Counted from the first letter of the stretch, positions 1 to 15,499 are shown. The stretch is 64,000 bases of DNA from an uncultured Candidatus Binatia bacterium (GCA_965203745.1 CBDBDK010000001.1:780400-844399), one strand, 5' to 3'. Notes: generated by a model not told the origin, from the letters alone. Numbers and translations are program-made.

Positions 1-10
1 TCCAGCCACG

Positions 11-80
11 CGCCCCTCCCCGGAGGGGCGCTGAAACATCCCCTCTCGGGAGGGGTGCCGCGAAGCGGCGGGGTGGGCTC
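11..80. repeat. REP-like palindromic units (family A) upstream of hsdR
   Basis: GCCCCTCCCCGGAGGGGC hairpin followed by ATCCCCTCTCGGGAGGGGTGCCGCGAAGCGGCGGGGTGGG. The same unit recurs more than 20 times in the window. Confidence 0.75.
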
Positions 81-142
81 TCCCCTTCTGCACGATATAA
101 ACACTCCCGCCCATCCAAAACCAGCATAACAACACCACGGAC

Positions 143-2905
143 ATGGCCAGAGCCAACCAGACCCCGGAACAAGCTGCTCGCGAAAATATTGACAGCTTGC
201 TCACTCAGGCAGGCTGGGCGGTCCAAGACAAAAAGAGCGTCAACTTTAACGCGGGTCTCGGCCTTGCCATACGTGAATATCAAACCGATACTGGCCCGGC
301 CGACTACGTGCTCTTCATCGACCGGAAACCCGTCGGCGTGGTCGAGGCCAAGCCGGAACACTGGGGCCAGAAGATCACGACGGTTGAGGAGCAATCCGGG
401 CGCTACGCGTCCGCAAAACTCAAGTGGGTGAGTAACAGCCAGCCCTTACCCTTCGTGTACGAAAGCACCGGCGTACTCACCCGTTTCACCGACGGACGCG
501 ACCCAAGACCGCGCTCCCGCGAGGTGTTCAATTTTCCTCGGCCGGAGACCATGCAGAACTGGTACACCCGGTCGGCCACGCTCCGCGCACGGCTCCAGGC
601 GCTGCCGAGTTTAGACCCCACCGGATTGAGAGGGTGCCAGGTCAACGCCATCGAGCAGCTCGAAGCCTCCTTCAAAGCTGACCGCCCGCGCGCCCTCATT
701 CAAATGGCGACCGGCTCGGGCAAGACCTACACCGCCATCACCTCGATCTACCGGCTGCTCAAACACGCGGACGCCAGGCGCATCCTCTTTCTGGTGGATA
801 CCAAAAACCTGGGTGAACAGGCCGAGCAGGAATTCATGGCCTACGTGCCCGGTGACGACAACCGCAAGTTCACCGAGCTGTACAGCGTCCAGCGCCTCAC
901 CTCGTCCTTTGTCGCCAGGGATAGCCAGGTCTGCATCAGCACCATCCAGCGCATGTACTCGCTGCTGAAGGACCAGGAGCTGGACGAAGCTCTGGAGCAG
1001 ACCCACCCGGCGGAGACATTGCTCAAACAACCAACGCCGGTCGTCTACAACGCCAGGATTCCGCCCGAATTCTTTGACTTCATCATCATCGACGAATGCC
1101 ACCGCTCGATCTACAACCTGTGGCGTCAGGTTCTGGAATACTTCGACGCTTATCTCATCGGCCTGACCGCCACCCCGGACAACCGCACCTATGGCTTCTT
1201 CAAAACGAACGTCGTCAGCGAATACGACCATGAGCAGGCCGTCGCCGACGGTGTCAACGTCGGCAATGAAGTCTACGTCATCGATACGGAAAGAACCAGG
1301 CACGGCGGGCAACTCAGGGCCGAACAGCAGGTTGAAAAGCGCGAGCGCCTGACGCGCCGCAAGCGCTGGGAGATTCAGGACGAGGACCTCGCCTATACCG
1401 CCCAGGAGCTTGACCATGCCGTGGTCAACCCCGACCAGATTCGCACCGTCGTCCGTACCTTTCGCGACAAACTGCCGGAGATATTCCCCGGCCGCAGCGA
1501 AGTGCCCAAAACGCTTGTCTTCGCCAAGACCGACAGCCACGCCGACGACATCATCCAGACCGTACGCGAGGAATTCGCCCAAGGCAACGAGTTCTGCAAG
1601 AAGGTCACCTACAAGACCGCAGAAGACCCGAAATCCGTCCTGGCCCAGTTCCGCAACGACTACCACCCGCGCATCGCCGTGACCGTGGACATGATCGCCA
1701 CCGGCACCGATGTCAAGCCGCTCGAATGCCTGCTCTTCATGCGCGACGTGAGGAGCCGCAACTATTTCGAGCAGATGAAGGGCCGCGGCACCCGCACCCT
1801 CGACCATGACGATCTCAAGAAAGTCTCGCCCTCCGCGGTCAGCGGCAAGACCCACTATGTGATCGTGGACGCCGTCGGCGTCACCACATCGCTCAAGACC
1901 GCCAGCCAACCGCTCATCACCAAACCCTCCGTACCGCTCAAGGACCTCGCCATGGGCGTGATGATGGGCGCACACGACGAAGACACCGTGAGTTCCCTTG
2001 CCGGCCGTCTCGCCCGGCTCAACCACCAACTTGACCCCGCCGAGCAGGAACGTATCCGGGAAAAGACCGGCGGCATCGCACTCACGCAAATCGTCGGCAA
2101 TCTATTGGAAGCCATCGACCCCGACCGCATTCAGGAAAAGGCCCGTGCAATCGAGTCCGTGCCCGACGGTGCCGAGCCGTCACCGGCCGCACGCAAACAA
2201 GCCCAGGAACAGTTGGTCCGCGACGCCGCCGGCGTGTTCAACGGCGAGTTGATCGAGCTGATCGACTCGATTCGCCGCGACAAGGAGCAGACCATCGACC
2301 ACGACAGCCTGGACACCGTGCTGCGCGCCGAATGGGAAGGCGACGCACACGAGAACGCTGAAGCTATGGCGCGGGACTTCCGGCAGTATCTGGAAGCCAA
2401 TCGCGATGAAATCGAGGCCCTGACCATCTTCTACGCCCAACCGCACCGTCGCCGCGAGTTGACCTACGCCATGATCCGCGAGGTGTGCGACAGACTGAAG
2501 AACGACCAGCCCCGATTGTCTCCTTTGCGGGTCTGGCAGGCGTATGTCGTGCTGGATGAGTATAAGGGCAGCCAGCCGGTCAGCGAACTGACCGCGCTCG
2601 TGGCGTTGATTCGCCGCGTCTGCGGCATTGACGCGACAATTTCACCCTATGCGGAAACCGTGCGCCGCAATTTTCAGCAGTGGATCATGACGCACCACAG
2701 CGGCAGCGGAGAGAAGTTCAACGAGGAGCAGATGGACTGGCTGCGCATGATCCGCGACCACATCATCACCTCGTTTCATCTGGACCGCGACGATCTGGAC
2801 ATGGCTCCGTTCGACGGCAAGGGCGGCCTGGGGCAGATGTATAAGCTCTTCGGAGAGCGGATGGATAGTGTGATTGATGAGTTGAATGAGGCGTTGGCGG
2901 CGTGA
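143..2905 (+). CDS. hsdR: Type I restriction enzyme R subunit (HsdR, EcoEI-R-like C-terminus)
   Basis: 920-aa ORF. N-terminal restriction-enzyme region, helicase Walker A MATGSGKTYT and motif II IIIDECHRS. Long C-terminal domain typical of EcoEI-type R subunits. Operon context with hsdS and hsdM. Confidence 0.93.
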   Translation: MARANQTPEQAARENIDSLLTQAGWAVQDKKSVNFNAGLGLAIREYQTDTGPADYVLFIDRKPVGVVEAKPEHWGQKITTVEEQSGRYASAKLKWVSNSQPLPFVYESTGVLTRFTDGRDPRPRSREVFNFPRPETMQNWYTRSATLRARLQALPSLDPTGLRGCQVNAIEQLEASFKADRPRALIQMATGSGKTYTAITSIYRLLKHADARRILFLVDTKNLGEQAEQEFMAYVPGDDNRKFTELYSVQRLTSSFVARDSQVCISTIQRMYSLLKDQELDEALEQTHPAETLLKQPTPVVYNARIPPEFFDFIIIDECHRSIYNLWRQVLEYFDAYLIGLTATPDNRTYGFFKTNVVSEYDHEQAVADGVNVGNEVYVIDTERTRHGGQLRAEQQVEKRERLTRRKRWEIQDEDLAYTAQELDHAVVNPDQIRTVVRTFRDKLPEIFPGRSEVPKTLVFAKTDSHADDIIQTVREEFAQGNEFCKKVTYKTAEDPKSVLAQFRNDYHPRIAVTVDMIATGTDVKPLECLLFMRDVRSRNYFEQMKGRGTRTLDHDDLKKVSPSAVSGKTHYVIVDAVGVTTSLKTASQPLITKPSVPLKDLAMGVMMGAHDEDTVSSLAGRLARLNHQLDPAEQERIREKTGGIALTQIVGNLLEAIDPDRIQEKARAIESVPDGAEPSPAARKQAQEQLVRDAAGVFNGELIELIDSIRRDKEQTIDHDSLDTVLRAEWEGDAHENAEAMARDFRQYLEANRDEIEALTIFYAQPHRRRELTYAMIREVCDRLKNDQPRLSPLRVWQAYVVLDEYKGSQPVSELTALVALIRRVCGIDATISPYAETVRRNFQQWIMTHHSGSGEKFNEEQMDWLRMIRDHIITSFHLDRDDLDMAPFDGKGGLGQMYKLFGERMDSVIDELNEALAA

Positions 2906-3114
2906 AGGCAGAAGGGAGAAGGAAAAAGGAAGAAGTGGCGGACCTTCGGACTCGGACGAAGGAGTTTGCACTGCGGATCATTCGCCTTTACTCAGGTCTT
3001 CCCAAGCGGACCGAGGCTCAAGTAATAGGCAGACAAATTATTCGTTCTGGAACGTCTGTGGGGGCGAATTACCGGGAGGCGTATCGCGCGCGGAGCAAGG
3101 CGGAGTTCATCTCT
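2902..3114 (+). pseudogene. 5' fragment of a four-helix-bundle (23S rRNA intervening-sequence type) protein gene
   Basis: The first ~71 codons (..FALRIIRLYSGLPKRTEAQVIGRQIIRSGTSVGANYREAYRARSKAEFIS) look like this family. Similarity ends near 3114 and the ORF then reads through unrelated DNA. The GTG start overlaps the hsdR stop. Confidence 0.55.
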
Positions 3115-3341
3115 TCCTTCTGCCTTCCTCCTTTTGCCTTTTCAGACGTTTGCGAAGCGCGACGATCCGCTCAGCATTGGGGTTGTCTACGATCCGGCAG
3201 GAAAGCGCTGTCTCACCGCGCACATGGGCGAGCACTTCGCCCAGGGCTGTTTCAATCTCTTGGCCGATGTTGGTGTGTTCGTTCATTTGAAAGCAGCTTG
3301 CGAATGGCACGTTCATAGGTGCGGGTGAAGTACAGATGCAT
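3107..3341 (-). pseudogene. Remnant of a toxin-antitoxin pair (toxin reduced to 18 codons, HTH antitoxin N-terminal part only)
   Basis: MHLYFTRTYERAIRKLLS (toxin-like N-terminus) runs directly into MNEHTNIGQEIETALGEVLAHVRGETALSCRIVDNPNAERIVALRKRL (N-terminus typical of HigA/XRE-type antitoxins). Both are truncated. Confidence 0.4.
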
Positions 3342-3377
3342 GAATTGTCTATCATGTGGCATTGCCGCAGAGCGTGC

Positions 3378-3440
3378 AAGCTCTTCGGAGAGCGGATGGA
3401 TAGCGTCATTGACGAACTGAATGAGGCGTTGGCGGCGTAA
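3378..3440 (+). repeat. Duplicate of the last 63 nt of hsdR (second, diverged allele)
   Basis: 57/63 identical to 2843-2905. Five differences are synonymous (both encode KLFGERMDSVIDELNEALAA). The sixth changes the stop from TGA to TAA. This copy carries the TAATG overlap with the hsdS start. Confidence 0.9.
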
Positions 3441-4699
3441 TGGGACTTGAAGCTGCAAGAATCCCAGATGGCTGGGCTCATACATCGCTCGAAGCTGTGT
3501 GTCAGATTCTCGATTCCAGGCGTATCCCGTTAAACAGCAGCGAACGCTCGCGGCGTATCGCCGGTAAGTCCGCTGATGATCTCTACCCCTACTACGGCGC
3601 CACAGGTCAGGTCGGTGTGATTGACGACTTCATCTTCAACGGCGAGCACATTCTACTGGGCGAAGACGGCGCCCCATTTCTTGATCCTTTCAAGGTCAAA
3701 TCCTATCTAGTGAGTGGAAAATTTTGGGTCAACAATCATGCCCATATTCTCAGATCAACAGTCTCGAACAAATACATTTGTCATTACCTGAATCACGTTG
3801 ATTATTCAGATCACGTCACAGGAACAACCAGACTCAAGCTCACCCAAAATGCGCTCAAGAGTATTCCCATTTGTGTTGCGCCAGCAGCGGAGCAACACCG
3901 CATCGTCGCCAAGATTGAGGAACTGTTTTCCGAACTGGACAAGGGCATCGAAAGCCTGAAAACCGCTCAGACGCAACTCAAGGTCTATCGTCAGGCGGTG
4001 CTCAAGCACGCCTTCGAAGGCAAGCTCACGGCGCAGTGGCGCGAAGAGAATAAAGACAAGCTTGAGACGCCTGAGCAATTACTCGCTCGCATCAAGCAGG
4101 AGCGGGAGGCGCGCTACGAGCAGCAACTCCAGGAGTGGAAGGCTGCTGTAAAGGAATGGGAGGAGAGCGGTAAGTCAGGCAAGAAGCCAGCTAAGCCGAA
4201 GCGGCCACATGATGTCGCTCCACTCCAACATCGCGAGAAGGAAAAACTACCATCACTACCCCCGGAATGGGCGTTTAGCCGTATGGGTGTATATATCGGC
4301 CAGATTGAGGCCGGTAAGAGTTTCAAATGCCTTGAAACGGAACCTTCAGCCGATCAGGTCGGGGTCGCCAAAGTCAGTGCAGTGACTTGGGGAGAGTACG
4401 ACGAGACGGAAAGCAAGACATGTCTGGACGCCGACAAGATCAATGAGAACCTCTTCATTCGGGAAGGCGATTTCCTACTGAGCCGCGCGAACACTATCGA
4501 GTTGGTCGGCGCATCTGTAATCGCGAAGACCGTCACCAAACGGATCATGCTTAGCGACAAGACTCTACGTATCCATTTCACTCCGGAGGATCACCGCTTC
4601 TTCCTTTACTACCTGAGGAGCCCCTACGGTCGCACCGAGATAGAGGCTCGTTCAACCGGCAATCAGGAGAGTATGCGGAATATCGGACAAGTCGGGTAG
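3440..4699 (+). CDS. hsdS: Type I R-M specificity subunit HsdS, truncated by group II intron insertion (authentic exon part 3440-4690)
   Basis: TRD with WVNNHAHIL motif, and central conserved helix ..PICVAPAAEQHRIVAKIEELFSELDKGIESLKTAQTQLKVYRQAVLKHAF... A second TRD follows. The ORF stops at a TAG (4697-4699) that lies inside intron DNA. Confidence 0.88.
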   Translation: MGLEAARIPDGWAHTSLEAVCQILDSRRIPLNSSERSRRIAGKSADDLYPYYGATGQVGVIDDFIFNGEHILLGEDGAPFLDPFKVKSYLVSGKFWVNNHAHILRSTVSNKYICHYLNHVDYSDHVTGTTRLKLTQNALKSIPICVAPAAEQHRIVAKIEELFSELDKGIESLKTAQTQLKVYRQAVLKHAFEGKLTAQWREENKDKLETPEQLLARIKQEREARYEQQLQEWKAAVKEWEESGKSGKKPAKPKRPHDVAPLQHREKEKLPSLPPEWAFSRMGVYIGQIEAGKSFKCLETEPSADQVGVAKVSAVTWGEYDETESKTCLDADKINENLFIREGDFLLSRANTIELVGASVIAKTVTKRIMLSDKTLRIHFTPEDHRFFLYYLRSPYGRTEIEARSTGNQESMRNIGQVG

Positions 4700-4765
4700 G
4701 TCAGGCCCATTGCTGGGCCTTTCCCCCCTAAGAACCGTGCGTGCCACTTTCACGGCACACGGCTC
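4691..4765 (-). ncRNA. Group II intron domains V and VI
   Basis: Domain V is GAGCCGUGUGCCGUGAAAGUGGCACGCACGGUUC (34 nt, GAAA loop). Domain VI is GGGGGGAAAGGCCCAGCAAUGGGCCUGACCU-A-CCCGAC, with the bulged A 7 nt from the 3' end. Confidence 0.85.
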
Positions 4766-6441
4766 AAGCTCGTTGTAATTGCTCCACTGTGAATCTGTTG
4801 GTGACAGTATAAGTGTGTGAGTTTGAGATTAGATAGTGCATTGCTACCTCCTTCTGACCGTTTATGGATATGATGTACATGTAGCTCCTCACCGTTCGTG
4901 AGGTGTTGTTGACAGACTGGGCAATGGTTCCCTTGTCGTCGTGCCAGTTCTTTCCATCGGCTTTGGGGTAGTAGCTCTGTTTTTCTCTGCTCTCGTTCTT
5001 CCCAGTAGTCTTTTAAGTCTGGGTCATCTGGTGAAGAGTTGTAAGATACCAGAATGTGTCTCTTGATGGGTATCCATGAGAGTTTCGGTAAGTAGGCTTC
5101 AGGTGTTCCGAATACCCATTTATCTTTTGACCCTTTCTTAAATTGCCCGAAGTATCGCTTCACTCTCCATTTTATTCCCTTATTAGGGTGTGTTTGCCTG
5201 CACCATTGCATGCAATGTTCCCATATAAAGGCGTCCAGGTTGTGGAAGGTCGTTTTTGCTACGCTTCCTCTAAAATAGTTGCCCCATCCGCGTATAATCG
5301 GTTTTAATCTTTGGATGATTGCATAGGCGTTCCATCCTTTGAGATTATGCCATTCTTGGTTGAGTCGGTGTTTTATGGCTTTGACCGCTTTATTACTCGG
5401 AGTAATAAGGAGCTTCCATCCTGTTCTTGCTGCCTGGATTGGGTACTGTTTGATTGTGAATCCGAGAAAGTCGAATCCTTCCGAGATATGCCGAATATGG
5501 GTTTTCTCTGGTGAGAGTTCAAGTCCTCTATGTCCTAGCCATATGCGTATCTCTTCGAGTGCCTGTTTTGCTTCTTCTTTTGTTTCTGTACAGATAACAA
5601 AATCATCTGCATATCTCACAAGCGCTCGTGTACCGTTGAGGTATTTTCGTGTGGAGTATGTGACCCCTATTGCGCTTTCCATGCCGTGTAAGGCGATGTT
5701 GGCGAGTAACGGGGAGACGACTCCCCCCTGTGGGGTTCCTTCTTCGGGTTGGACCTTCTGTTGTTTTTCCATTATCCCTGCTTTTAACCATGCCTTGATG
5801 AGTTTCTGACCAGGAAAGCCCTGGATGGCTTCAAGGATGGTATGGTGTTGGATATGGTCGAAGGCTCCTGTGATGTCAGCATCCACAATCCACTTTTTAT
5901 TTCGATGTGGGCGGTAAATACTGTACAGTCGTGCTATGGCGTCGTGACAACTGCGTCCAGGTCGGAACCCATAAGAACAGGGCTCGAATTTGGCTTCCCA
6001 CTCCGGTTCTAAGGCATTCTTGACGATTGCCTGCATTACCCGGTCTCGAATGGTCGGGATGCCGAGGGGACGTTTCTTGCCGTTAGCCTTGGGAATATAG
6101 ACTCGTCTGACCGGCTGTGCTTTCCATGGCTCGTAGGTGGCAATTTCTTGCATGAGTGCAGTTCTAGCTGCCGGGGTTTTGACTATCACCTTGTCAACAC
6201 CTGGCGTGCTTCGTCCGGCGTTAATCTGCGTTACCCTTCGGATACTCGTCTCACGGTTGGCTGTGCATTTCAGCATCAGACGTTGCAGGGAACGGACCTT
6301 GCGGCGGTTCCCTTGCCGTGAAGCTCGAAAGATTCTCTGCCTCAGGTTGCGCACGATTTTGGCGTTTTCGCACCAGTCGATGCTATTCCAGTCACGCGCT
6401 ACAACCTCGCTGGCAGTTTCCTGTCTCTTCGCGTCAGTCAT
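4750..6441 (-). CDS. Group II intron-encoded protein (reverse transcriptase / maturase / HNH endonuclease)
   Basis: 563 aa. RT blocks RPLGIPTIRDRVMQ, GTPQGGVVSPLLANI and YADDFV. Maturase region RGWGNYF. C-terminal CPVCQ..HVHHI..SNLKLTHLYCHQQIH HNH motif. Confidence 0.95.
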   Translation of the reverse strand: MTDAKRQETASEVVARDWNSIDWCENAKIVRNLRQRIFRASRQGNRRKVRSLQRLMLKCTANRETSIRRVTQINAGRSTPGVDKVIVKTPAARTALMQEIATYEPWKAQPVRRVYIPKANGKKRPLGIPTIRDRVMQAIVKNALEPEWEAKFEPCSYGFRPGRSCHDAIARLYSIYRPHRNKKWIVDADITGAFDHIQHHTILEAIQGFPGQKLIKAWLKAGIMEKQQKVQPEEGTPQGGVVSPLLANIALHGMESAIGVTYSTRKYLNGTRALVRYADDFVICTETKEEAKQALEEIRIWLGHRGLELSPEKTHIRHISEGFDFLGFTIKQYPIQAARTGWKLLITPSNKAVKAIKHRLNQEWHNLKGWNAYAIIQRLKPIIRGWGNYFRGSVAKTTFHNLDAFIWEHCMQWCRQTHPNKGIKWRVKRYFGQFKKGSKDKWVFGTPEAYLPKLSWIPIKRHILVSYNSSPDDPDLKDYWEEREQRKTELLPQSRWKELARRQGNHCPVCQQHLTNGEELHVHHIHKRSEGGSNALSNLKLTHLYCHQQIHSGAITTSLSRVP

Positions 6442-6797
6442 AGTGTGCTCCCTTTACAAAGTTCTTTGGACAACGAACCAGCCCCACGTCAGCAGGCTTT
6501 CGCCTTGGGTATTGCCCTATCCAGTTGGTTATGTCATACGGTTGCCCGTATGTGAGAGGATGTATGAGAGACTATAATCCTGTGTATGAGCCAAAGCCGA
6601 AGCCTCAGCCGAGCAAACTCTGGTGGGTTTTTACCTGGCCAGTGTTTCTTATTGCTCTGACACTGATTCTTTGTCTTATTTACCTACTGTCGTAGGTATT
6701 TCCATCCTCTGCGTTTCCCGTTGCCTTTCGGCTACTGGCATTCGCTTCTTGGGGCGTCCTACACCCACTGAAGGATTCGGCCTTCCTTACGGTTGGC

Positions 6798-7229
6798 TTA
6801 CTCGTATCCGTCTGGATTTTTGGTAGGGTCTCTTTTGAAGAGGAATGGTCGGAGTATGATTTGCACTATTTTACACAGTTGTTCATGAGGAAACTTGATT
6901 GGTTCTGGTGTTGCTCCTGTGAGTACTACCAGACATCTCGCTGTTTCTTCTTCCCAGTCTGTTGTTATGGTGCAATTCTTGGATGGGTTTTCTATCTCTA
7001 CATCTATGCCTTCTGAGGTGAGTTTGAATTCGCACTTTTTCTCGTGTTGGCCTGAGACTGTGCGCCCAAGAAGGATGTTTGTACTTTCCCTTTTGTGTGG
7101 GTAGTATTTGAATTCTATTCCTTCTCGTTTTGCCTCGGAGAGTTCTTTGCGGTTCTCAATATCCTGTTCAACGTGTTTATTGAGTTCCTCAAAGAAGTAA
7201 GGCATGTTGCATTTTGCGTATTGTTCCAC
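6798..7229 (-). CDS. Hypothetical 143-aa protein encoded inside the 5' ribozyme half of the group II intron
   Basis: Uninterrupted ORF in the AT-richest part of the intron, where random ORFs of this length are unlikely. It lies on the same strand as the intron and has protein-like composition. No family recognised. Start uncertain (GTG at 7229 or ATG at 7205). Confidence 0.45.
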   Translation of the reverse strand: MEQYAKCNMPYFFEELNKHVEQDIENRKELSEAKREGIEFKYYPHKRESTNILLGRTVSGQHEKKCEFKLTSEGIDVEIENPSKNCTITTDWEEETARCLVVLTGATPEPIKFPHEQLCKIVQIILRPFLFKRDPTKNPDGYE

Positions 7230-7693
7230 CCAATTTTTATGGACTTCCTCTATCCTTCTTTTTTATATTTTTACCCTTGGTTTGTCCATACGTTTCTAAG
7301 ACTCCATTGGGGTTATCACGTTCCGCATAGAAAATATGACGATTGGGTTAGGTGCCCTCTTTACGCCGGAGACGAGGTGTACTCGAAAGGAACTAAAAGA
7401 CTTTCCTTTCCTTTACTCATATACCAATCACATATGAGCCTTTTATGTCTCGTTTCTTCTGTGTCAACCACCTTTCAGAAGTTCCTAGTAACGACGCTTG
7501 TGAGGATTCACTTTCGTTCACCTTACCAATCTTTACCTCTTGCCCTGGTTCGGGATGTGGTTTCCGTTCCCATTAGGCTTTCATCCCAGCTTCACACCCC
7601 CGGATTACTCCAAACGCATGTGGGAAGTGAGGAAAGCTTGTACACTAGCTTTAGTACCTAAGTACCTGTTTTCTATGCGACTTCGTGTCGCAC

Positions 7694-7996
7694 GATCGGA
7701 TCAAGGGTATAATCCTGCCCGTCTGCACCGAAGTTGAGCAGGCCGAGATCGTTCGCACCCTCAACGCCTGCCTTGAAGCCGCCGAGGCTCTGGAGGCCGA
7801 GATCGACGCTGCCTCCACCCGCGCCGATGCGCTCCGCCAATCAATCCTGAAAAAAGCTTTCTCCGGCCAACTCGTCCCGCAGGACCCACACGACGAACCG
7901 GCCTCGGTTCTTCTGGATCGAATCAGGGTCGAAAGAGAGAAGGCGGTGAAGAACAACCACTCCAAGAAAACAAAGAAGAGAAAGACGACCGCATGA
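7694..7996 (+). pseudogene. hsdS: hsdS 3' part (C-terminal conserved helix), separated from the 5' part by the intron
   Basis: DRIKGIILPVCTEVEQAEIVRTLNACLEAAEALEAEIDAASTRADALRQSILKKAFSGQLV. This is the distal conserved region of HsdS. It is in the same reading frame as 3440-4690 once 3003 nt are removed. Confidence 0.88.
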
Positions 7997-8027
7997 ATAC
8001 CGCTCTCAGTGTCTCCACAGTCTGGAG
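7993..8027 (+). repeat. Relic of the first 35 nt of hsdM, in ATGA overlap with the hsdS stop
   Basis: ATGAATACCGCTCTCAGTGTCTCCACAGTCTGGAG versus the hsdM start at 13202-13236 (30/35 identical). Confidence 0.8.
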
Positions 8028-8030
8028 ATA

Positions 8031-8072
8031 ACCTACCCCGCCACTAACGCGGCAGCCCTCCAAGGAGGGAAT
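8031..8072. repeat. REP family A unit (degenerate, reverse orientation)
   Basis: ACCTACCCCGCCACTAACGCGGCAGCCCTCCAAGGAGGGAAT matches the AACCCACCCCGCCGCT..GCGGCACCCCTCC..GGAGGGGAT consensus. Confidence 0.7.
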
Positions 8073-8198
8073 TATATACGATCTTACCCAAATGTCACTA
8101 AATATGTTGTTGTAAAGGGGCGACCACAACACAAAACTGGACTTTTGTTAATGGGAGAGCCTCCCCTTTTTCCTCTCCTTTTCATATGGAAGAGATGC

Positions 8199-8227
8199 TT
8201 GTCAAATAATAGGGAACAACGTATAAC
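8199..8227 (+). promoter_or_regulatory. Candidate sigma70-type promoter of the SIR2-like gene
   Basis: TTGTCA, a 17-nt spacer, then TATAAC. It lies about 30 nt upstream of the ATG at 8259. Sequence pattern only. Confidence 0.35.
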
Positions 8228-8258
8228 ACAGCCCCGATTTTACAAAAAAAGGGAACAT

Positions 8259-9320
8259 ATGATTCTCGTATTTGTTGGTGCGGGCGGCTCAGCCGCCGTG
8301 GACCCAAAGCAGTACCCGACGACCCTAGAATTTTTCAATCTTCTTCCAGACAGTATTACAACTAATACTTTGTTTACTTCAGTGAAGGGTTTTCTCACGG
8401 GGCCGAAAAAGAAAGAGAAGGGAACCATTGATATTGAGGATGTATTGGAAACCTTAAACGAACTCCAAGTGAATGGCCAAAGAGCAATTGATAAAACGAA
8501 GATTCTAGGATGGACCTTAGGAGGGGAACTAGGATTTATTAGCGGAGTCTCTTTTGATGCCCTTGCTCAGTCTATGGAGCAGTTGATTAAAACGCATGCC
8601 GCCCCACTTGCCTCCGAAATTCATAGGCAAGTGTATGATCTCTATGCAGAAGAGCCCGACCCCACTCAGTTGAAGGATTGGGTAAGTCTTCTTTCGGGAT
8701 TAGCAGAAATCGATCCCGCTATCGAAATCTTTACAACAAATTATGACCTCGTGTTGGAAAGCCTGATTCCACTGGTAAAACCAGATATAAAAACGGGCCG
8801 TGATTCCACCAGTGGTATTCAAACACGGCTCGATATCACCCCTTGGCTACTTTCCATGCCAGACGATCCGAGTCGTCCTAGTGGACTCCTCACTAAGCTC
8901 CATGGGTCGGTTGATTGGCAAAGGGGCAGGAAAGGAAAAATCAACATAAGCGACACCGACACCGGAAGTGACGATAAACATTGCATTCTCTATCCAGGCC
9001 ATAAAGGAGAACCGACTGAAGAGCCGTTCAAGGTGTTTCATGAATATTTTCGTCGGGTTATACGGTCCCGGACTCTATCCGCTGCCGTCTTTGTCGGGTT
9101 TGCTTTCCGAGATGAGTATATTAACTTCCTTCTGGCCGATCTTCCTAAAGATACTCCTACGGTTTTTGTAACCAAAGATAATATAATCCATCTTGATAGG
9201 AGTGGCCCCCCAACCGGTGCTCCTGCCGTCAACAGTTTTATACATATCTCAGCAGGCTTGACATCGCATACGCCCGAGCTATGCCTCGAATATTTAAGAG
9301 AGAATAAGCGTAAGAAGTAG
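8259..9320 (+). CDS. SIR2_2-like (sirtuin-fold, putative NADase) stand-alone protein
   Basis: 353 aa from ATG 8259 (purine-rich AAAGGGA just upstream). Motif order ILVFVGAGGS, FTTNYDLVLE, LTKLHGSVDW, VFVGFAFRDEYI. Visibly AT-richer than its flanks. The longer start at 8145 was rejected. Confidence 0.75.
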   Translation: MILVFVGAGGSAAVDPKQYPTTLEFFNLLPDSITTNTLFTSVKGFLTGPKKKEKGTIDIEDVLETLNELQVNGQRAIDKTKILGWTLGGELGFISGVSFDALAQSMEQLIKTHAAPLASEIHRQVYDLYAEEPDPTQLKDWVSLLSGLAEIDPAIEIFTTNYDLVLESLIPLVKPDIKTGRDSTSGIQTRLDITPWLLSMPDDPSRPSGLLTKLHGSVDWQRGRKGKINISDTDTGSDDKHCILYPGHKGEPTEEPFKVFHEYFRRVIRSRTLSAAVFVGFAFRDEYINFLLADLPKDTPTVFVTKDNIIHLDRSGPPTGAPAVNSFIHISAGLTSHTPELCLEYLRENKRKK

Positions 9321-9621
9321 TTTCATACCCTGCCCGTTTTGGGTATCCAGGTATATAAGTCCCTCCACGGAGGGGATAGAAGAAGTTCCTGTCTTCAGCA
9401 GGCGCCCCGACAGAGAGCGGGCACTGCTGGGAATGCAGGTATTGAAGAGAGGCCAAGGAGAGAATATATTCCGGCTCGACAGCAGGAGACGATATGAGCG
9501 AAACGAGGGCGGTGCCCACCGGGCATAGAACGCTGTTTCAGATGGCTGACTTTGAATTGGTGATTGGACCACCATTGTGCAAGGGCGCTGCCTGCGTCGC
9601 CCCTCATATCGGTCGTATAAG

Positions 9622-9747
9622 CCCCCAAATTACGTCTAAAAAGACAAATTACGGTTCAATACACCCCCCAATTACGCACAAAAAGGCATTTAACGGTTCA
9701 ATACGCCACCGAATTGTGCACAAAAAGACCCTTCATGGTTCAATAAG
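9622..9747 (+). repeat. Three tandem 42-bp direct repeats
   Basis: Units at 9622-9663, 9664-9705 and 9706-9747. They share the boxes AATTACGCACAAAAAGAC and ACGGTTCAATAC. Confidence 0.85.
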
Positions 9748-10142
9748 TTATTGATTTCATTGCATTCAGGTCAGAGACCCCTCCTATATTTTTTTCGGGA
9801 GGCGTTTGTTAGAGAAGAACAGGGTTTGATAGTAAGCGTTCCAATGGCACCCCGCAGACACGATACAACCGGGGCGCTCCCTTCTCCTCCCCGCTTGGGA
9901 CGGGTGAGGCGTATTGCCGCGTCAGCCGGGGAAGAGGGGGCAAAGGCCACGGCGGGCTGGCCGAAGAGGGGGGGGAGCCAGTGGCCGAGATTGATGGCGG
10001 CGCGCTTGGCGGCCAGTCGGGGCAACCAGCCCTGGGGGCTACGGGTGCCCGGCCAAGGCAAGCCTAGCCTAGCCTCGACACGCTCCTTCTACAGTGCTCC
10101 CTCATCTGCATCGCGCGTCTCGGAGGGGATCAAGAGGGATGT

Positions 10143-10328
10143 ATGACTACACAGCCCATCGTCCCCAAAGTCTGGAGCTTCTGCACCACCCTGCGCGATG
10201 ACGGGGTGAGCTATGGCGACTACCTGGAACAACTCACCTATCCGATCTTCCTCAAGATGGCCGACGAGTACGCCAAACCACCGTACAACCGTGATGTCGG
10301 CATCCCTGCCGAATACGACTGGAGCCCC
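10143..10328 (+). pseudogene. hsdM: 5' stump of a second hsdM allele (about 62 codons)
   Basis: MTTQPIVPKVWSFCTTLRDDGVSYGDYLEQLTYPIFLKMADEYAKPPYNRDVGIPAEYDW parallels resident HsdM residues 1-60. Similarity ends near 10328. Confidence 0.85.
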
Positions 10329-10359
10329 TTATTCGTGTCTTGGTGTGGCAGGCGTGGCG

Positions 10360-10653
10360 TCACACCGCTTTTGGGGCGACGGTGAGACGGACCCCGAGCG
10401 CCCCCAGCACCTTCATCACCGTGCCGATGCGGGGGTCGCGCTCGCCGGACAGCGCCTTGTACAGGCTGGGCCGGCCCAGGTGGGTTTCGTGGGCGACGGC
10501 GGTCATGCCCATAGCGCGTGCCACGGTGCCGACCGCCTTGACGAAAAATTCCGGGTCGTTTTCTTCGAGCGCGGCTTTCAAGTATTCGAGCCGGGCTTCG
10601 TCATCTCCCAAAAACTCGGCACTGTCCCACGGGGTATACGTTTCTTTTTCCAT
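10360..10653 (-). CDS. Addiction-module antidote protein (HTH antitoxin, HigA-related family)
   Basis: 97 aa. The segments DSAEFLGDDEARLEYLKAALEENDPEFFVKAVGTVARAMGMT..THLGRPSLYKALSGERDPRIGTVMKVLGALG are typical of the antidote partner of killer proteins. Confidence 0.8.
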   Translation of the reverse strand: MEKETYTPWDSAEFLGDDEARLEYLKAALEENDPEFFVKAVGTVARAMGMTAVAHETHLGRPSLYKALSGERDPRIGTVMKVLGALGVRLTVAPKAV

Positions 10654-10662
10654 GTCGCCTCC

Positions 10663-10946
10663 CTAGAGTGCGCGCGCCATGCGTTGCGCGCGGCGGATGT
10701 CCTGTTGTTGGCTCGTCTTATCGCCACCACACAGCAGGAGAACCACGGTCTTGTCCTGGATCGTGTAATAAACGCGATAGCCTTGGGCCACGTTGATCCG
10801 CAGCTCGCTGACCCCCTGGCCCACGCTCCGGTGGTCGCCAAAATTACCCGGTCTAGGCGCACCGCAATCCGCGCCTGTGCCTGACGGTCCCGCAGTGCTT
10901 TCATCCAGCGGCGGAAGGTCTCGCTCTGGATGACCGTATATGTCAT
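10663..10946 (-). pseudogene. Addiction-module killer protein (RelE/HigB-like), frameshifted
   Basis: MTYTVIQSETFRRWMKALRDRQAQARIAVRLDR continues in another frame as GNFGDHRSVGQGVSELRINVAQGYRVYYTIQDKTVVLLLCGGDKTSQQQDIRRAQRMARAL. The span is 284 nt, not a multiple of 3. The shift lies near 10846-10850. Confidence 0.75.
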
Positions 10947-10956
10947 ACCGAGAGTT

Positions 10957-10972
10957 GTATCCAATTGGATAC
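10957..10972. promoter_or_regulatory. Perfect 16-bp palindrome, candidate TA operator
   Basis: GTATCCAATTGGATAC, 10 nt upstream of the killer-gene start codon. Confidence 0.4.
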
Positions 10973-11105
10973 AGACGATCAAGGCTGAACGCGATGTCTG
11001 CCAGAACTTGAAACTGCGGGCCGGAGCAATCTGCGTAATATAAAGGATGAACACCGCCAACCGGCGCTTGCGGCCATCTTCCGAATACTGATATCGGGTG
11101 AATCC

Positions 11106-11354
11106 ATGAGCAAAGGGCTTGTCAGAACAGTGATTAGCCTGGATGACGAACAGAAAGCGTGGCTGGACCAGCAGGTCGCGTTGCGCCGCGTGTCCATGGC
11201 CGCGCTGATTCGCCAGGCGGTCAGCGAATTTCAGAGACGGGAACAGCGCGGCGCGGCCGTGTCGTTTCAAGAGGTGCTCAAGCAGACGGCGGACATCTGG
11301 CAGGGTGGGGACGGGCTTGGGTACCAGGAGCGTATTCGCCAGGAATGGCCGTGA
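11106..11354 (+). CDS. Ribbon-helix-helix (CopG-type) antitoxin-like protein, no cognate toxin adjacent
   Basis: 82 aa. VISLDDEQKAWLDQQVALRRVSMAALIRQAV is an RHH signature. Confidence 0.65.
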   Translation: MSKGLVRTVISLDDEQKAWLDQQVALRRVSMAALIRQAVSEFQRREQRGAAVSFQEVLKQTADIWQGGDGLGYQERIRQEWP

Positions 11355-11365
11355 GGGTCTGTACC

Positions 11366-11487
11366 ATCCCCTCTTGGGAGGGGTGGCCCGAAGGGCCGGG
11401 GTGGGTTCCTCCTCCGGTCGATTGTCTCCGCTCCTGGAGAGGGCAACCCACCCCGCCGCTGACGCGGCACCCCTCCAAGGAGGGGAT
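11366..11487. repeat. REP family A dimer (inverted pair, GGCCC-type plus CCGC-type units)
   Basis: ATCCCCTCTTGGGAGGGGTGGCCCGAAGGGCCGGGGTGGGTT, a 37-nt spacer, then AACCCACCCCGCCGCTGACGCGGCACCCCTCCAAGGAGGGGAT. Confidence 0.85.
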
Positions 11488-11499
11488 CAAGAAGGAAGT

Positions 11500-11658
11500 A
11501 TGACTACACAGCCCATCGTTTCCAAAGTCTGGAGCTTCTGCACCACCCTGCGTGACGAACCGACCTCGGTTCTTCTGGACCGAATCAGGGCCGAAAGAGA
11601 GAAGACAACGAAGAACAACCACGCCAAGAAAACAAGGAAGAGAAAGACGAGGGCATGA
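11500..11658 (+). pseudogene. Chimeric relic: hsdM allele-2 codons 1-19 fused to the last ~33 codons of an hsdS allele-2
   Basis: MTTQPIVSKVWSFCTTLRD joined to EPTSVLLDRIRAEREKTTKNNHAKKTRKRKTRA. Compare the HsdS end DEPASVLLDRIRVEREKAVKNNHSKKTKKRKTTA at 7888-7996. Confidence 0.85.
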
Positions 11659-13193
11659 CTGGCAAACTGCCCATCAACATCAACCACCTGCTTCTCCAGC
11701 GTACCATTGAAGGCGAGCGCGTCGAGTACAAGGCGGGTTGGAATCCGCAGAGCGTGCTGCACACCGTCTGCGCCTTCGCCAACGACTTCCACAATCTGGG
11801 TGGCGGTTACGTCGTCCTGGGCGTCAAGGAGCGCGACGGTCGCCCCGTGCTGCCGCCCAAGGGCATTCCGCCGGATTCCGTCGACGCGATCCAGAAGGAA
11901 CTGTTGAATCTGGGCAATTCGGCCATACAGCCCTATTACCACCCGCTTACGGGGACCTACGCTATTGACGGCCGGACCATACTCGTGCTGTGGGTACCCG
12001 GTGGCGAAACCCGCCCTTACAAAGCCAAAGTACATCTCACCAAAGGGCGCTCGGAGTGGGCCTACTTCGTCCGCAAACACACAAGCACCGTCCGTGCGAG
12101 AGGCCGGGATGAACGCGAGTTGCTCAGCTTGGCGGCTACTGTGCCCTTTGATGACAGGTATCGCCAGACGGCTTCGCTTGATGACCTGTCGCGTCGGCTT
12201 ATCCAAGAATTCCTGCGCAACATCGGCAGCGACCTCGCCGCTGAGGCAGCCGGTCTCTCGATTGAGAGCCTGGGCCAGCGCATGAACATTGTCGGCGGTC
12301 CTCCCGAAGCAATGTTCCCCAAGAACGCCGGCTTGCTGTTTTTCAACGACCGACCGCACGACTTCTTTCCGGCAACCCAGATTGACGTTGTCTGGTTCCC
12401 GGACGGCCCGGGCGGAGACCACTTCGAGGAGAAGGAGTTTCGTGGTCCACTGTCGATCATCCTCGGCGAGGCGATCAGCTACATCGGGCGGAACTACCTG
12501 AAGGAAACGGTTGTCAAGCATCCACACAAACCCGAAGCAGAGCGATTCTGGAACTTTCCGATTGGTGCCATCGAAGAGGCCCTGGTGAATGCGATTTATC
12601 ACCGCTCATACGAGGAACGGGAGCCGGTCGAGGTCCGCATTACCCCGGAAGAGTTGGTGGTCTTGAGCTTTCCCGGTGCCGACCGGTCCATCCGCATGGA
12701 AGATTTCAAGAACGGGCAAGCCGTCAGCCGTCGCTACCGCAATCGCCGCATTGGCGAGTTTCTCAAGGAACTCGAACTGGCCGAGGGCAGGTCAACCGGA
12801 GTCCCCAAGATTCTGCGAGCCATGCGGCAGAACGGCTCCCCGGAGCCGGTCTTTGAGAGCGACGAGGACCGCACCTGGTTTCTGGTCCGGCTGCCGGCGC
12901 ATGAACGGGCGTCACTTGGCGCAACCGCACATGAGACCACACATGAGGCCGAACATGTTACCGAACATGTTGAGCGCCTAATTACGGCCCTTACGAGAGA
13001 AATGAACCGCCCCCAGTTGCAGGATGCGCTAGGTGTGAATCACCGGCAACATTTCGTCGCGGCGTACCTCAGTCCTGCCCTCAAAGCAGGCCTGATCGAG
13101 ATGACCCTCCCGGACAAGCCGACCAGCCGGAACCAGCGTTACCGCCGCACGGCGGCCGGAGAGTCTTTGGCGCAAGAAATCAAAGAGAAGTAA
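11655..13193 (+). CDS. AlbA_2 (Schlafen-like) / HATPase_c_4 / wHTH protein (often annotated RecG-like or putative transcriptional regulator)
   Basis: 512 aa. N-terminal ERVEYKAGWNP..VCAFANDFHNLGGGYVVLGV. Central EEALVNAIYHRSY. C-terminal winged-helix-like tail. The ATG overlaps the stop of the upstream relic (GCATGA), taking the slot normally held by hsdM. Confidence 0.75.
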   Translation: MTGKLPININHLLLQRTIEGERVEYKAGWNPQSVLHTVCAFANDFHNLGGGYVVLGVKERDGRPVLPPKGIPPDSVDAIQKELLNLGNSAIQPYYHPLTGTYAIDGRTILVLWVPGGETRPYKAKVHLTKGRSEWAYFVRKHTSTVRARGRDERELLSLAATVPFDDRYRQTASLDDLSRRLIQEFLRNIGSDLAAEAAGLSIESLGQRMNIVGGPPEAMFPKNAGLLFFNDRPHDFFPATQIDVVWFPDGPGGDHFEEKEFRGPLSIILGEAISYIGRNYLKETVVKHPHKPEAERFWNFPIGAIEEALVNAIYHRSYEEREPVEVRITPEELVVLSFPGADRSIRMEDFKNGQAVSRRYRNRRIGEFLKELELAEGRSTGVPKILRAMRQNGSPEPVFESDEDRTWFLVRLPAHERASLGATAHETTHEAEHVTEHVERLITALTREMNRPQLQDALGVNHRQHFVAAYLSPALKAGLIEMTLPDKPTSRNQRYRRTAAGESLAQEIKEK

Positions 13194-13201
13194 GCCTACA
13201 T

Positions 13202-14686
13202 ATGAATACCGCCCCCATCGTCTCCAAAGTCTGGAGCTTCTGCACCACCCTGCGCGATGACGGGGTGAGCTATGGCGACTACCTGGAACAGCTCACCTAC
13301 CTGATCTTCCTCAAGATGGCCGACGAGTACGCCCAACCACTGCACAACCGCGATGTCGGCATCCCGGCCGAATATAACTGGCGGAGCCTGAAGTCGAAGA
13401 GTGGAGCGGAACTCGAAAGCCACTACGTCACCCTGCTTCGCGAACTCGGCACCAAAAAAGACATGTTGGGTCAGATTTTTACCAAGGCCCAGAACAAGAT
13501 TCAGGACCCGGCCAAGCTGTTCCGCCTTATCGATATGGTGGACGACACCGAATGGGTGAGCATGGGTGCCGACGTAAAAGGCGATATTTACGAAGGGCTG
13601 CTTGAAAAGAACGCCGAAGATACCAAGTCGGGCGCGGGCCAGTATTTCACGCCGCGCGCCCTCATCCGCGCGATAGTCGAATGCGTCCGGCCCGAACCGG
13701 GCAGACTCATTGCCGACCCGGCCTGCGGGACAGGCGGTTTCTTTCTGGCCGCCTACGACTTCATCAACAACTCGGACAACTTTAGGCTCGATAAACCGCA
13801 GAAGGCGTTCCTGAAGCACGAGGCATTTCACGGCAACGAGATCGTCGCCAACACGCGCCGGTTGTGCCTGATGAATATGTTCCTGCACAACATTGGTGAG
13901 ATAGACGGCGGCGCGCCCATTTCGTCAAACGATTCGCTGGTGGCCGATGCCGGTCAGCGCTTTGACTACGTGCTGGCGAACCCGCCTTTCGGCAAGAAGA
14001 GTTCCATGAGCTTCACCAACGAGGAGGGAGAACAGGAAAAAGAGGACCTGACCTATAACCGGCAGGACTTCTGGGCGACCACCTCGAACAAGCAGCTCAA
14101 TTTCGTGCAGCACATTCGCACCATGCTCAAGACCACCGGCCGTGCCGCCGTTGTCGTGCCGGACAACGTGCTGTTTGAAGGCGGTGCCGGCGAGACGATT
14201 CGCAAGAAGCTGCTGGACAACACCGACCTGCACACCATCCTGCGCCTGCCGACCGGTGTGTTCTACGCCCAAGGGGTCAAGGCCAACGTGATTTTCTTCG
14301 ACAACCACGAAGCCAGCCCGAATCCCTGGACGAAGCAGGTCTGGTACTACGACTACCGCACCAATATCCACCACACGCTCAAGAAAAAGCCCCTCCGCTT
14401 TGAAGACCTCCAGGATTTTATCCAGTGCTATCACCCGCAAAACCGTTGGGAGCGGACGGAAACCTGGGACGCGGAAGCCCACCCCAAGGGGCGGTGGCGA
14501 GTGTTCTCGTATGACGAGGTTCTCGCTCGGGATAAGACCAGCCTGGATATTTTCTGGCTCAAGGACAAAAGCCTGGCCGATCTCGATAATCTGCCTGAGC
14601 CGGACGAGCTGGCAGCCGAAATCATTGAAAACCTGGAGTCCGGGCTTGCCCGTTTTCGAGAGATTGTGACGGCGTTGGAGCGGTGA
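13202..14686 (+). CDS. hsdM: Type I R-M DNA methyltransferase subunit HsdM
   Basis: 494 aa. HsdM N-terminal domain, AdoMet motif ADPACGTGGF and catalytic NPPFG. Confidence 0.95.
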   Translation: MNTAPIVSKVWSFCTTLRDDGVSYGDYLEQLTYLIFLKMADEYAQPLHNRDVGIPAEYNWRSLKSKSGAELESHYVTLLRELGTKKDMLGQIFTKAQNKIQDPAKLFRLIDMVDDTEWVSMGADVKGDIYEGLLEKNAEDTKSGAGQYFTPRALIRAIVECVRPEPGRLIADPACGTGGFFLAAYDFINNSDNFRLDKPQKAFLKHEAFHGNEIVANTRRLCLMNMFLHNIGEIDGGAPISSNDSLVADAGQRFDYVLANPPFGKKSSMSFTNEEGEQEKEDLTYNRQDFWATTSNKQLNFVQHIRTMLKTTGRAAVVVPDNVLFEGGAGETIRKKLLDNTDLHTILRLPTGVFYAQGVKANVIFFDNHEASPNPWTKQVWYYDYRTNIHHTLKKKPLRFEDLQDFIQCYHPQNRWERTETWDAEAHPKGRWRVFSYDEVLARDKTSLDIFWLKDKSLADLDNLPEPDELAAEIIENLESGLARFREIVTALER

Positions 14687-14703
14687 GAAGAGAAGGGGCA
14701 GGA

Positions 14704-14745
14704 AACCCACCCCGCCGCTATGCGGCACCCCTCCGGGGAGGGGAT
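14704..14745. repeat. REP family A unit
   Basis: AACCCACCCCGCCGCTATGCGGCACCCCTCCGGGGAGGGGAT. Confidence 0.85.
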
Positions 14746-14801
14746 GGTGGGCGCCCATCTCGGAACTCTGTGCCCCCTCCGAGTGGAGGGGGGCTATGAA
14801 A

Positions 14802-14949
14802 CTAGAGCAAATAACGATGATGTGTAGCCGTCCGTCATTCCTGCGGAAGCAGGAATCCAGGTCTCCAGCCTCCCGGCCTCTGGATGCCGGATCACGTCCG
14901 GCATGACGCAAGCGTACTGGCACGGCTACAACGTATCGTGAAACGCGCT
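14802..14949 (+). repeat. MITE-like repeat family B, short copy
   Basis: CTAGAGCAAATAACGATG..CGTCATTCCTGCGGAAGCAGGAATCC..CCGGCATGACG..GGCTACAACGTATCGTGAAACGCGCT. A second, longer copy lies at 42374-42570. Confidence 0.8.
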
Positions 14950-15334: not shown

Positions 15335-15499
15335 GTCTGATCCCTCCTCTATGGATTATACTTGCCCGTCTGCTTAGCGGGACTGATAAAGAGATGCAAG
15401 CCGGTCTGGCCCTTCAGGGGCAGTGGTTGCGGAATTGCGCGTTCTCAGGCAGAAAGAGGCTCGATAACGAAGGCCAGCAGTACTCCGGCTCCGGAGGGG

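Follow-up and report, generated by a model that had tools for sequence, protein, structure and literature searches.

A Type I restriction-modification operon with orphan hsd gene ends and serial cargo in a Candidatus Binatia-like genome

Introduction

Type I restriction-modification (R-M) operons can hold genes other than hsdR, hsdS, and hsdM; PrrC and the Campylobacter rlo genes are among those known to be embedded in them. Here, we describe such an operon, located on the chromosome and arranged as hsdR-hsdS-hsdM (positions 143-14686), in a 64,000-nucleotide (nt) stretch of DNA (hereafter, the window) from an uncultured Candidatus Binatia-like genome (GCA_965203745.1 CBDBDK010000001.1:780400-844399). 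Both junctions of this operon serve as slots for cargo genes, and the cargo is accompanied by partial hsd copies that, judging from their sequences, stem from different alleles than the complete ones.

Guest defence genes inside Type I R-M operons have been documented (Payne et al. 2024, bioRxiv 10.1101/2024.01.29.577857), and the TgvAB genes of Vibrio cholerae VPI-2 are embedded in such an operon (PMC11411939). Embedded guests have already been used to discover defence systems; how they enter tight, overlapping operons has hardly been addressed, and the text returned by a term search of the preprint and a passage search of PMC11411939 contains no mention of recombination, hotspots, or truncation. 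As in these operons, non-hsd genes lie between the hsd genes of the family studied here, mostly on the same strand, and belong to defence or toxin-antitoxin families such as SIR2, AlbA_2, GmrSD, DarTG, Fic, RhuM, and PIN pairs. Unlike them, the window carries orphan hsd ends from other alleles, and six syntenic loci (the window and five relatives) show stepwise turnover of the cargo.

The effector-immunity arrays of type VI secretion systems (Vibrio cholerae) and the orphan toxin arrays of Rhs and contact-dependent inhibition (CDI) systems provide a second comparison. For these arrays, sequential displacement by means of a homologous anchor and an illegitimate join has been proposed (PMC5361080). 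There, as here, a conserved segment beside variable cargo is the anchor, and new modules displace older ones, which are left as serial partial copies. The window contains a conserved anchor, serial partial copies with cargo ahead of one complete copy, and different alleles among them. It differs from the arrays in that the anchor is an R-M enzyme subunit gene rather than a toxin gene, the remnant is a non-functional gene end with unrelated cargo rather than a useful immunity gene, and overlapping reading frames make the duplication obligatory.

Homology-facilitated illegitimate recombination was reported in bacteria capable of natural transformation (de Vries and Wackernagel 2002, Prudhomme et al. 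2002, and Meier and Wackernagel 2003, as cited in PMC5361080) and in Escherichia coli conjugation (PMC3240628). The window resembles its products in what appear to be one homologous arm, one microhomology joint (4 nt here), and foreign DNA beside the anchor. Lastly, phase-variable Type I systems hold silent hsdS copies (PMC7672463), and in these systems, as in the window, partial hsd genes lie beside a complete operon. Unlike in those systems, the repeats described below are direct and cover constant gene ends, and there is no invertase among the open reading frames (ORFs) scanned.

Results

Duplicated gene ends in the operon

Two of the three operon genes are intact. hsdR (143-2905, plus strand; 920 aa) combines the helicase/ResIII core with a Type I C-terminal domain (Pfam ResIII, 1.5e-39; EcoEI_R_C, 2.4e-39; also HSDR_N and Helicase_C), matches PADLOC REase_I, and shares 88% nt identity with the syntenic locus L001 (L-numbers denote other loci of the family fetched for comparison). 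hsdM (13202-14686, plus strand; 494 aa) encodes an N6 adenine methyltransferase with the HsdM N-terminal domain (Pfam N6_Mtase, 1.6e-73, and HsdM_N, 1.5e-12; PADLOC MTase_I, 7e-199) and represents the resident Binatia type, sharing 98% aa identity with L161 and 95% with L001. A second hsd locus was looked for in the window and none was found. When the HsdM protein was used as the query, we recovered 80 loci (L001-L080; 73-95% aa identity) from >10 phyla, including Binatia, Latescibacterota, Gemmatimonadota, Nitrospirota, Verrucomicrobiota, Cyanobacteriota, Bacillota, and others, and a later scan added more. This level of HsdM identity across phyla suggests that a single operon family has spread horizontally over a very wide range. 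HsdM is most conserved at residues 6-45, which are almost invariant among about 80 loci from many phyla, and it is this stretch that recurs as stumps.

An earlier note on this DNA, made from the sequence alone, had reported four sets of duplicated hsd gene ends. Self-blastn of positions 1-16500, together with a repeat search, recovered every one of them with significant similarity, far beyond chance. The last 63 nt of the working hsdR (R3'a, 2843-2905, plus strand) recur as an orphan copy (R3'b, 3378-3440, plus strand) that is identical at 57 of 63 positions (92% identity and E 3e-18 between 2843-2903 and 3378-3438). Both copies encode KLFGERMDSVIDELNEALAA; all five coding differences are synonymous (P ~4e-4 if the changes were random), and the stop codon is TGA in the first copy and TAA in the second. 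Only R3'b keeps the TAATG overlap with hsdS and the hsdS ribosome-binding region. The neighbors of the two copies also differ in their affinities: R3'a continues an hsdR 3' region whose best match is L004 (94-97%) and runs directly into a four-helix-bundle (4HB) gene, as in L081, and R3'b is contiguous with the first target-recognition domain (TRD1) of hsdS, which is L001-like (87-96%). The suggestion that synonymous-only divergence marks a functional foreign hsdR allele is supported by these results.

Between hsdS and hsdM, orphan hsdM starts lie at 7993, 10143, and 11500, followed by the full hsdM at 13202. The first (M5'a, 7993-8027, plus strand) is a 35-nt stump in ATGA overlap with the hsdS stop and matches 13202-13236 at 30 of 35 positions. 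This is the weakest of the pairs (E 7e-5 over 65 nt, 7963-8027 against 13173-13236), and the same stump, with the same break beside a repetitive extragenic palindromic (REP) element, is found in L161. The other two belong to an hsdM allele that begins with MTTQ instead of MNTA. The longer (M5'b; 10122-10322 with its REP tail, plus strand) is a 180-nt stump, of which 10155-10322 is 93% identical to 13214-13381 (E 1e-67); the homology stops at 10322 (+180) and not at 10328, as the note had placed it, and there the stump meets the next block, which holds a HigA-like gene, at a CTGG microhomology. The shorter (M5'c; 11479-11556 with its REP tail, plus strand) is a 57-nt stump. Both are preceded by the same tail, GGAGGGGATCAAGA, and tail and stump together are 95% identical between 10122-10195 and 11479-11552 (E 4e-27). 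One stump reaches a stop after 12 codons.

The frame of M5'c runs on into a fused fragment of a foreign hsdS, namely its last ~102 nt (S3'b, 11554-11658, plus strand), which are 90% identical to the end of the resident gene (7892-7996; E 1e-32) and begin at 11554, slightly before the 11557 first reported. Read from the sequences, the joint between the two lies at a GAYGA-like match, and S3'b ends in ATGA overlap with an AlbA_2 gene. In total, one hsdR end, three hsdM starts, and one hsdS end are orphans in the window, which also holds pieces of older cargo.

The fusion of hsdM start and hsdS end (11500-11658 in the window, 1318-1476 in L161) forms an open frame of 52 codons that terminates in the AlbA_2 ATGA overlap. 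This frame is open in both loci despite ~10% nt divergence, and it may keep AlbA_2 translationally coupled.

States of the hsdS-hsdM junction in syntenic Binatia loci

The window is syntenic with five Candidatus Binatia genomes, with a downstream flank that is 81-93% identical (L001 and L002 have flanks in common with the window). The six loci show six different states of the junction between hsdS and hsdM (S-M junction), built from common modules: the HigA block, a small gene paired with a PIN gene, AlbA_2, and the REP tail with the second hsdM allele. In L001, the junction is compact and empty, which provides the unoccupied hsdR-hsdS-hsdM site that the earlier note had proposed to look for. 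L002 has hsdS, the small gene, the PIN gene, and hsdM. L163 has hsdS, a 60-nt AlbA_2 stump, HigA, and hsdM, and in L228 an AlbA_2 stump and HigA are followed by a 49-nt hsdM stump, 2.4 kb of other cargo, the REP tail, and an intact hsdM of the MTTQ allele. In both L163 and L228, the same HigA block is joined to the AlbA_2 stump 35 nt further out than its joint in the window.

The closest state is that of L161, in which hsdS is followed by a 35-nt hsdM stump, a REP element, the spacer, the REP tail, a 57-nt stump fused to an hsdS end, AlbA_2, and hsdM. The window corresponds to this state with the addition of the SIR2_2 block (bounded by 17-nt REP hairpins), a block at 10202-11478, and an intron. 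The block at 10202-11478 is bounded exactly by the 80-nt repeats of REP tail and stump, so that the two loci differ there by a repeat-bounded unit that was gained or lost. We located L161 using a degenerate probe for the hsdM::hsdS joint; an exact 32-nt joint probe found no match in the genome and metagenome collections searched. A genome scan with the N-terminal part of hsdS yielded no further stretch of the L161 contig, and the comparison with L161 stops short of its R-S junction (that between hsdR and hsdS). Because L161 is an independent assembly and carries the same M5'a-REP and REP tail-M5'(57)::S3'-AlbA_2-hsdM joints at ~90% identity, the joints common to both loci are biological and not chimeras.

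L007, which belongs to another lineage, has an intact hsdR-hsdS-AlbA_2-hsdM operon that is 90% identical to 11554-12938 of the window. This homology begins exactly at the fusion joint, i.e., inside hsdS. L007 represents a donor type for the AlbA_2 block. The MTTQ allele of hsdM is intact in the syntenic L228, behind the same REP tail. Together with the hsdR-4HB arrangement, which resembles that of native loci, these affinities support the claim that the locus is a composite of several hsd alleles.

Some of the syntenic loci show further changes. In L161 (432-545), the REP hairpin that holds SIR2 in the window is instead split by a 114-nt insert with ACGTGTG/CACACGT ends and a CCAAG duplication, which looks like a miniature mobile element. 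Two sister loci also look damaged, with an hsdR-hsdS deletion in L228 (7371-10348) and an hsdM frameshift in L163 (11992-13475); this damage may reflect real decay or long-read homopolymer errors.

Junctions, cargo, and stumps across the operon family

Among the fetched loci, hsdR, hsdS, and hsdM always follow each other in this order, and neighbors usually overlap by 1-4 nt. An overlap or direct abutment of hsdR and hsdS is seen in 37 of the 49 loci in which both ends could be placed. At the S-M junction the genes overlap or abut in 32 of 99 loci, and the other 67 hold 0.1-8.8 kb of cargo. AlbA_2/HATPase_c_4-related genes are the commonest cargo there (15 of the first 80 loci), and the remainder includes GmrSD (GmrSD_N), RhuM, Fic, SIR2_2 with HerA, DarT with a macro-domain partner, a small gene with PIN, GIY-YIG/DUF4357, an HEPN protein, and a PD-(D/E)XK protein. 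The junction between hsdR and hsdS (R-S junction) holds AbrB-type antitoxin genes with PIN, nucleotidyltransferase pairs, and 4HB genes. Most cargo is on the operon strand, with its own start and stop overlapping its neighbors.

Stumps are not confined to the window. The layout of stump, cargo, and complete hsdM recurs in L012 (break at +131), L014 (+108, followed by DarT/DarG), L063 (+58, followed by an AlbA_2-like gene), L161 (+35 and +57), L201 (+146 and ~+89, the second fused to an hsdS end), and L228 (+49). Orphan hsdR ends (21-149 nt) lie just 5' of hsdS in L004, L005, L202, and L203, all four with a homologous vapBC block; in L219, an orphan hsdR end follows an unrelated 1.25-kb insert, and L163 has an hsdR-end remnant. 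In the stump loci that were checked, the order was always stump, then cargo, then full gene. Break points, compiled from the window, L004, L005, L012, L014, L063, L161, L163, L201, L202, L203, L219, and L228, fell at 35, 49, 57, 58, ~89, 108, 131, 146, and 180 nt for hsdM, and the hsdR stumps measured 21-149 nt. Such variable break points argue against a site-specific enzyme. Apart from the reverse transcriptase (RT) of an intron, we found no integrase, transposase, recombinase, or invertase domain in the larger ORFs scanned at 1-15000 (small ORFs were not all scanned). Both results favor the proposal that cargo entered by recombination rather than through a transposase.

Two further loci deserve description. 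L201 (17165-18532, Ferruginibacter) has two serial hsdM stumps, the second fused to an hsdS end, which repeats the pattern of the window in an unrelated phylum. In L004 (11539-16769), an ATPase and HNH gene pair, Septu-like by reading rather than by a family scan, lies 3' of a complete operon. Beyond this pair come the end of an hsdS (150 nt), an AlbA_2 gene with a frameshift, and the start of an hsdM (~370 nt), a displaced cassette in which both homology arms are kept.

Cargo of the hsdS-hsdM interval

The interval from 7993 to 13201 is laid out serially for the most part, and the nested structure first proposed is only partly borne out. All features given here are on the plus strand unless stated otherwise. 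M5'a is followed by a REP element (8030-8072) and a low-GC block (8073-9376; GC 43-48%) that holds an SIR2_2 gene (8145-9320; Pfam SIR2_2; PADLOC SIR2 models, 1e-20). At either edge of the block, which is missing from L161, lies a 17-nt REP hairpin repeat (8056-8072 and 9360-9376). A spacer of 745 nt (9377-10121), 88% identical in L161, separates it from the REP tail of M5'b; within the spacer, a 42-nt unit is repeated three times in tandem (9622-9745; ~78% alike) in an iteron-like manner.

Beyond M5'b, the minus strand encodes an intact HigA-like antitoxin (10360-10653; NCBIfam TIGR02684, 2e-28; 96-97% aa identity to its counterparts at this junction in L163 and L228) and, with a frameshift, a RelE/ParE-type toxin (10663-10946), the latter assigned from three-frame translation, its pairing with the antitoxin, and a tblastn relative in L224 rather than from a family scan. 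The small frame at 11106-11354, which we read as a VapB-like antitoxin gene, shares 82-84% nt identity with its L002 and L012 counterparts, each of which precedes a PIN gene; it has no PIN partner in the window, and it had no match in PADLOC or NCBIfam (Pfam was not run on this frame). Two REP elements (11359-11487) precede M5'c. REP elements are scattered over the whole window according to blastn-short (a strict REP pattern gave only 2 copies) and are host repeats that entered the interval. S3'b is followed by the AlbA_2/HATPase_c_4/Fic-like_C gene (11655-13193; 512 aa; Pfam). The end of AlbA_2 with its 8-nt spacer (13173-13201), which is the translation start region of hsdM, may resemble an hsdS tail (13173-14744 aligns with 9971-11572 of L001).

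The non-hsd genes between hsdR and hsdM therefore comprise the 4HB fragment, SIR2_2, the HigA/RelE pair, the VapB-like gene, and AlbA_2. As in other embedded operons, this cargo draws on known or candidate defence families (SIR2 here, others in the relatives).

A group II intron in hsdS

hsdS is split into a first part with TRD1, the central conserved region, and TRD2 (3440-4690, plus strand; Pfam Methylase_S) and a second part with the C-terminal conserved region and tail (7694-7996, plus strand). The frame stops at 4699 and resumes at 7694, and the two halves join in frame when the intervening 3003 nt are removed. These (4691-7693, minus strand) are a group II intron in antisense orientation (Rfam Intron_gpII; Pfam RVT_1, RVT_N, GIIM, and HNH). 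Domain V/VI RNA is found at 4691-4767 (RF00029, 64 bits against a gathering score of 40), a D1-D4 match lies at 7566-7652, the 5' end reads GTGCG, and the ORF at 4750-6441 encodes an RT/maturase/HNH protein (RVT_1, 2.7e-47; GIIM, 1.2e-17). Insertion produced no duplication in hsdS. Because the intron is antisense, it cannot be spliced from the hsdS message, and hsdS is therefore truncated. With hsdS split by an intron on the wrong strand, the R-M system of the window is probably inactive. The intron also contains a 143-aa frame upstream of the RT (6798-7229) without a family match in Pfam, PADLOC, or NCBIfam.

The hsdR-hsdS interval

Between the two hsdR ends (2906-3377) lies the truncated 4HB gene, of which the 5' 70 codons remain (2902-3111, plus strand; PF05635/TIGR02436; Pfam 2e-10, NCBIfam 2e-14) and whose start is in GTGA overlap with the hsdR stop. 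The hsdR 3' end and 4HB together share 81% nt identity with L081, where both are contiguous, and the last 280 nt of hsdR with the following 4HB gene resemble loci in which both are naturally contiguous; the native arrangement hsdR-4HB-hsdS occurs in L081, L084, L089, L090, L092, and L095. A 34-nt fragment (3107-3140, plus strand) encodes ISSFCLPPFAF, the same sequence as that at the boundary of hsdS TRD1 and the central region in 4HB-linked operons, and is the right arm of an inverted repeat with its partner arm at 2905-2933. On the minus strand, a 59-codon frame (3107-3286) cut by this arm is probably a gene fragment; it had no match in Pfam, NCBIfam, or PADLOC and no relative in any fetched locus.

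An inverted repeat usually surrounds 4HB genes (PF05635, the 23S rRNA intervening-sequence protein family). Of 70 fetched loci (L081-L160 set), 52 have a complementary partner to the purine-rich stretch of short repeats at the 4HB 5' end, in most cases ~370-470 nt downstream, just beyond the stop codon. In the hsd-linked copies (L081, L090, L092, and L095), the partner arm is 735-763 nt away, inside hsdS, and encodes ISSFCLPPFS. The window keeps both arms (2905-2933 and 3112-3140) around an internal deletion. We considered the purine-rich motif after the hsdR stop as a mobile-element end or recombination site and rejected this idea: it is the 4HB 5' region and an arm of the gene's own inverted repeat.

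Discussion

The loci compared here show the repeats, their allelic origins, the empty and intermediate junction states, and the variable break points. We consider it rather likely that these features arose through a series of recombination events, each anchored in a conserved hsd end and closed on its other side by an illegitimate join. Incoming DNA from a different allele of this operon family would carry the cargo. On one side, homologous recombination would occur in the conserved hsd segment (the hsdM 5' end for the S-M slot and the hsdR 3' end for the R-S slot), and on the other side, a microhomology-type illegitimate join would form within the resident version of this gene end. Given the overlap of the genes, both neighbors and their translation start regions would stay whole only in junction-duplicating products, and because only these products spare the neighbors, the displaced resident gene end would survive as a stump of a different allele. 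Selection, or simply what is recognizable as an operon, would leave products with the order stump, cargo, gene. The repeats thus created could later mediate gain or loss of whole blocks, and the three hsdM stumps, from left to right, would represent successively younger events. The pathway and the order of events are both inferred from the sequences compared. Homology-facilitated illegitimate events usually delete, rather than duplicate, recipient DNA, which sets the window apart from them.

Several observations weigh against this reconstruction. The pathway is read from end products only, and these would look the same if an excised circle had integrated through a single crossover. If L161 is a deletion derivative of a window-like state, the exchange took place in the last few bases of an 80-nt repeat, which is unexpected for a uniform crossover. 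The joints specific to the window (R3'a/4HB, M5'b/HigA, and SIR2) rest on one assembly. Among the other occupied S-M junctions of the first set, 41 of 42 have no stump beside hsdS, so that clean exchange by ordinary double crossover would be the rule and the scarred route the exception. For the same reason, bracketing by hsd duplicates, which the earlier note had ascribed to each insertion, is not a general rule. It holds for some insertions in the window, but not for the intron (no duplication), the SIR2_2 block (17-nt REP hairpins), or the 4HB gene (its own inverted repeats). Because the SIR2 block has REP bounds and 4HB its own inverted repeats, other routes contribute, and the intron (by retrohoming), the spread of REP elements, and the 4HB gene are clearly additional agents in this locus.

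A tentative extension, which we regard as possible but doubtful, is that orphan hsd ends act as portable homology arms of an integrase-free cassette system for defence genes. Ordinary recombination could then copy a block of stump, cargo, and gene start into any compact operon in the family, sparing the overlapping neighbors, and the in-frame hsdM-start::hsdS-end mini frame, open in the window and L161, would preserve translational coupling into the cargo.

The alternative that fares best, although we think it unlikely, involves circles: recombination between the flanking hsd ends would free the cargo with one copy of the end, and a single crossover into a related operon would recreate the duplication. 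Besides predicting products identical to those seen, it would accommodate the exact repeat-bounded unit by which the window and L161 differ, the perfect 26-nt run common to the two hsdR-end copies of the window, and the recurrence of the vapBC block with an hsdR-end copy in L004, L005, L202, and L203 (remnant in L163). However, repeats that are short (35-180 nt) and ~10% diverged are poor substrates for homologous recombination, the stumps that accompany the homologous vapBC block differ in length (45-51 nt in L004, L005, and L202 vs. 93 nt in L203), and the M5'::S3' joints require an illegitimate join anyway.

Three further explanations appear very improbable. Site-specific insertion, in which an integrase or transposase acting in trans duplicates its attachment site, would explain why insertions lie at precise gene junctions and why direct repeats flank the blocks (including the short 17-nt repeat around SIR2). 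It is largely refuted by the inconstant crossover point (hsdM breaks at 35-180 nt, hsdR stumps of 21-149 nt), by the scan of larger ORFs that yielded no recombinase domain other than the intron RT, by the ~10%, synonymous difference between copies, which implies different allelic origins, and by the homology of S3'b-AlbA_2 to a native operon that begins inside hsdS. Equally hard to sustain is tandem duplication of junction segments in place, followed by drift and later insertion of cargo. The repeats are direct and near each other, as it would predict, but their allelic affinities contradict it: the hsdR copies diverge only synonymously, the stumps carry the distinct MTTQ N-terminus that is intact in L228, and the orphan hsdS end is closest to the foreign lineage of L007.

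An assembly artefact, i.e., a metagenome-assembled genome that merges strains with different hsd loci, has as little in its favor. The source is apparently an uncultured genome, the exact AlbA_2 and HsdM proteins and the 32-nt joint were found in no collection searched, and related assemblies have frameshifts. Against this stand the same joints at ~90% identity in the independent L161, the HigA block and the REP tail with the second hsdM in L163 and L228 as well, analogous stumps in assemblies from other phyla, and repeats so short and diverged that they would not collapse a long-read assembly. The least credible explanation is a store for phase variation, with the partial hsd copies beside the operon as silent specificity-switching cassettes like those of the inverting hsdS genes of pneumococci and mycoplasmas, which is contradicted by copies that are direct rather than inverted and span constant gene ends rather than target-recognition domains, by the lack of an invertase among the ORFs scanned, and by the stump that stops after 12 codons.

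Embedding of guests in Type I operons is known, and what the present locus adds to the known displacement arrays is modest: a pattern of scars, a series of six states, and a role for overlapping junctions. The window and its five relatives provide a stepwise record of empty, single-cargo, and displaced-stump states and of repeat-bounded gain or loss, which points to recombination anchored in conserved hsd ends and not to the enzymes of mobile elements. If general, this process would explain how dozens of cargo types came to occupy one operon family across phyla, and orphan gene ends would be a sequence signature by which acquisitions could be dated and ordered. It would also suggest that the conserved hsd ends make the cargo of these operons exchangeable.

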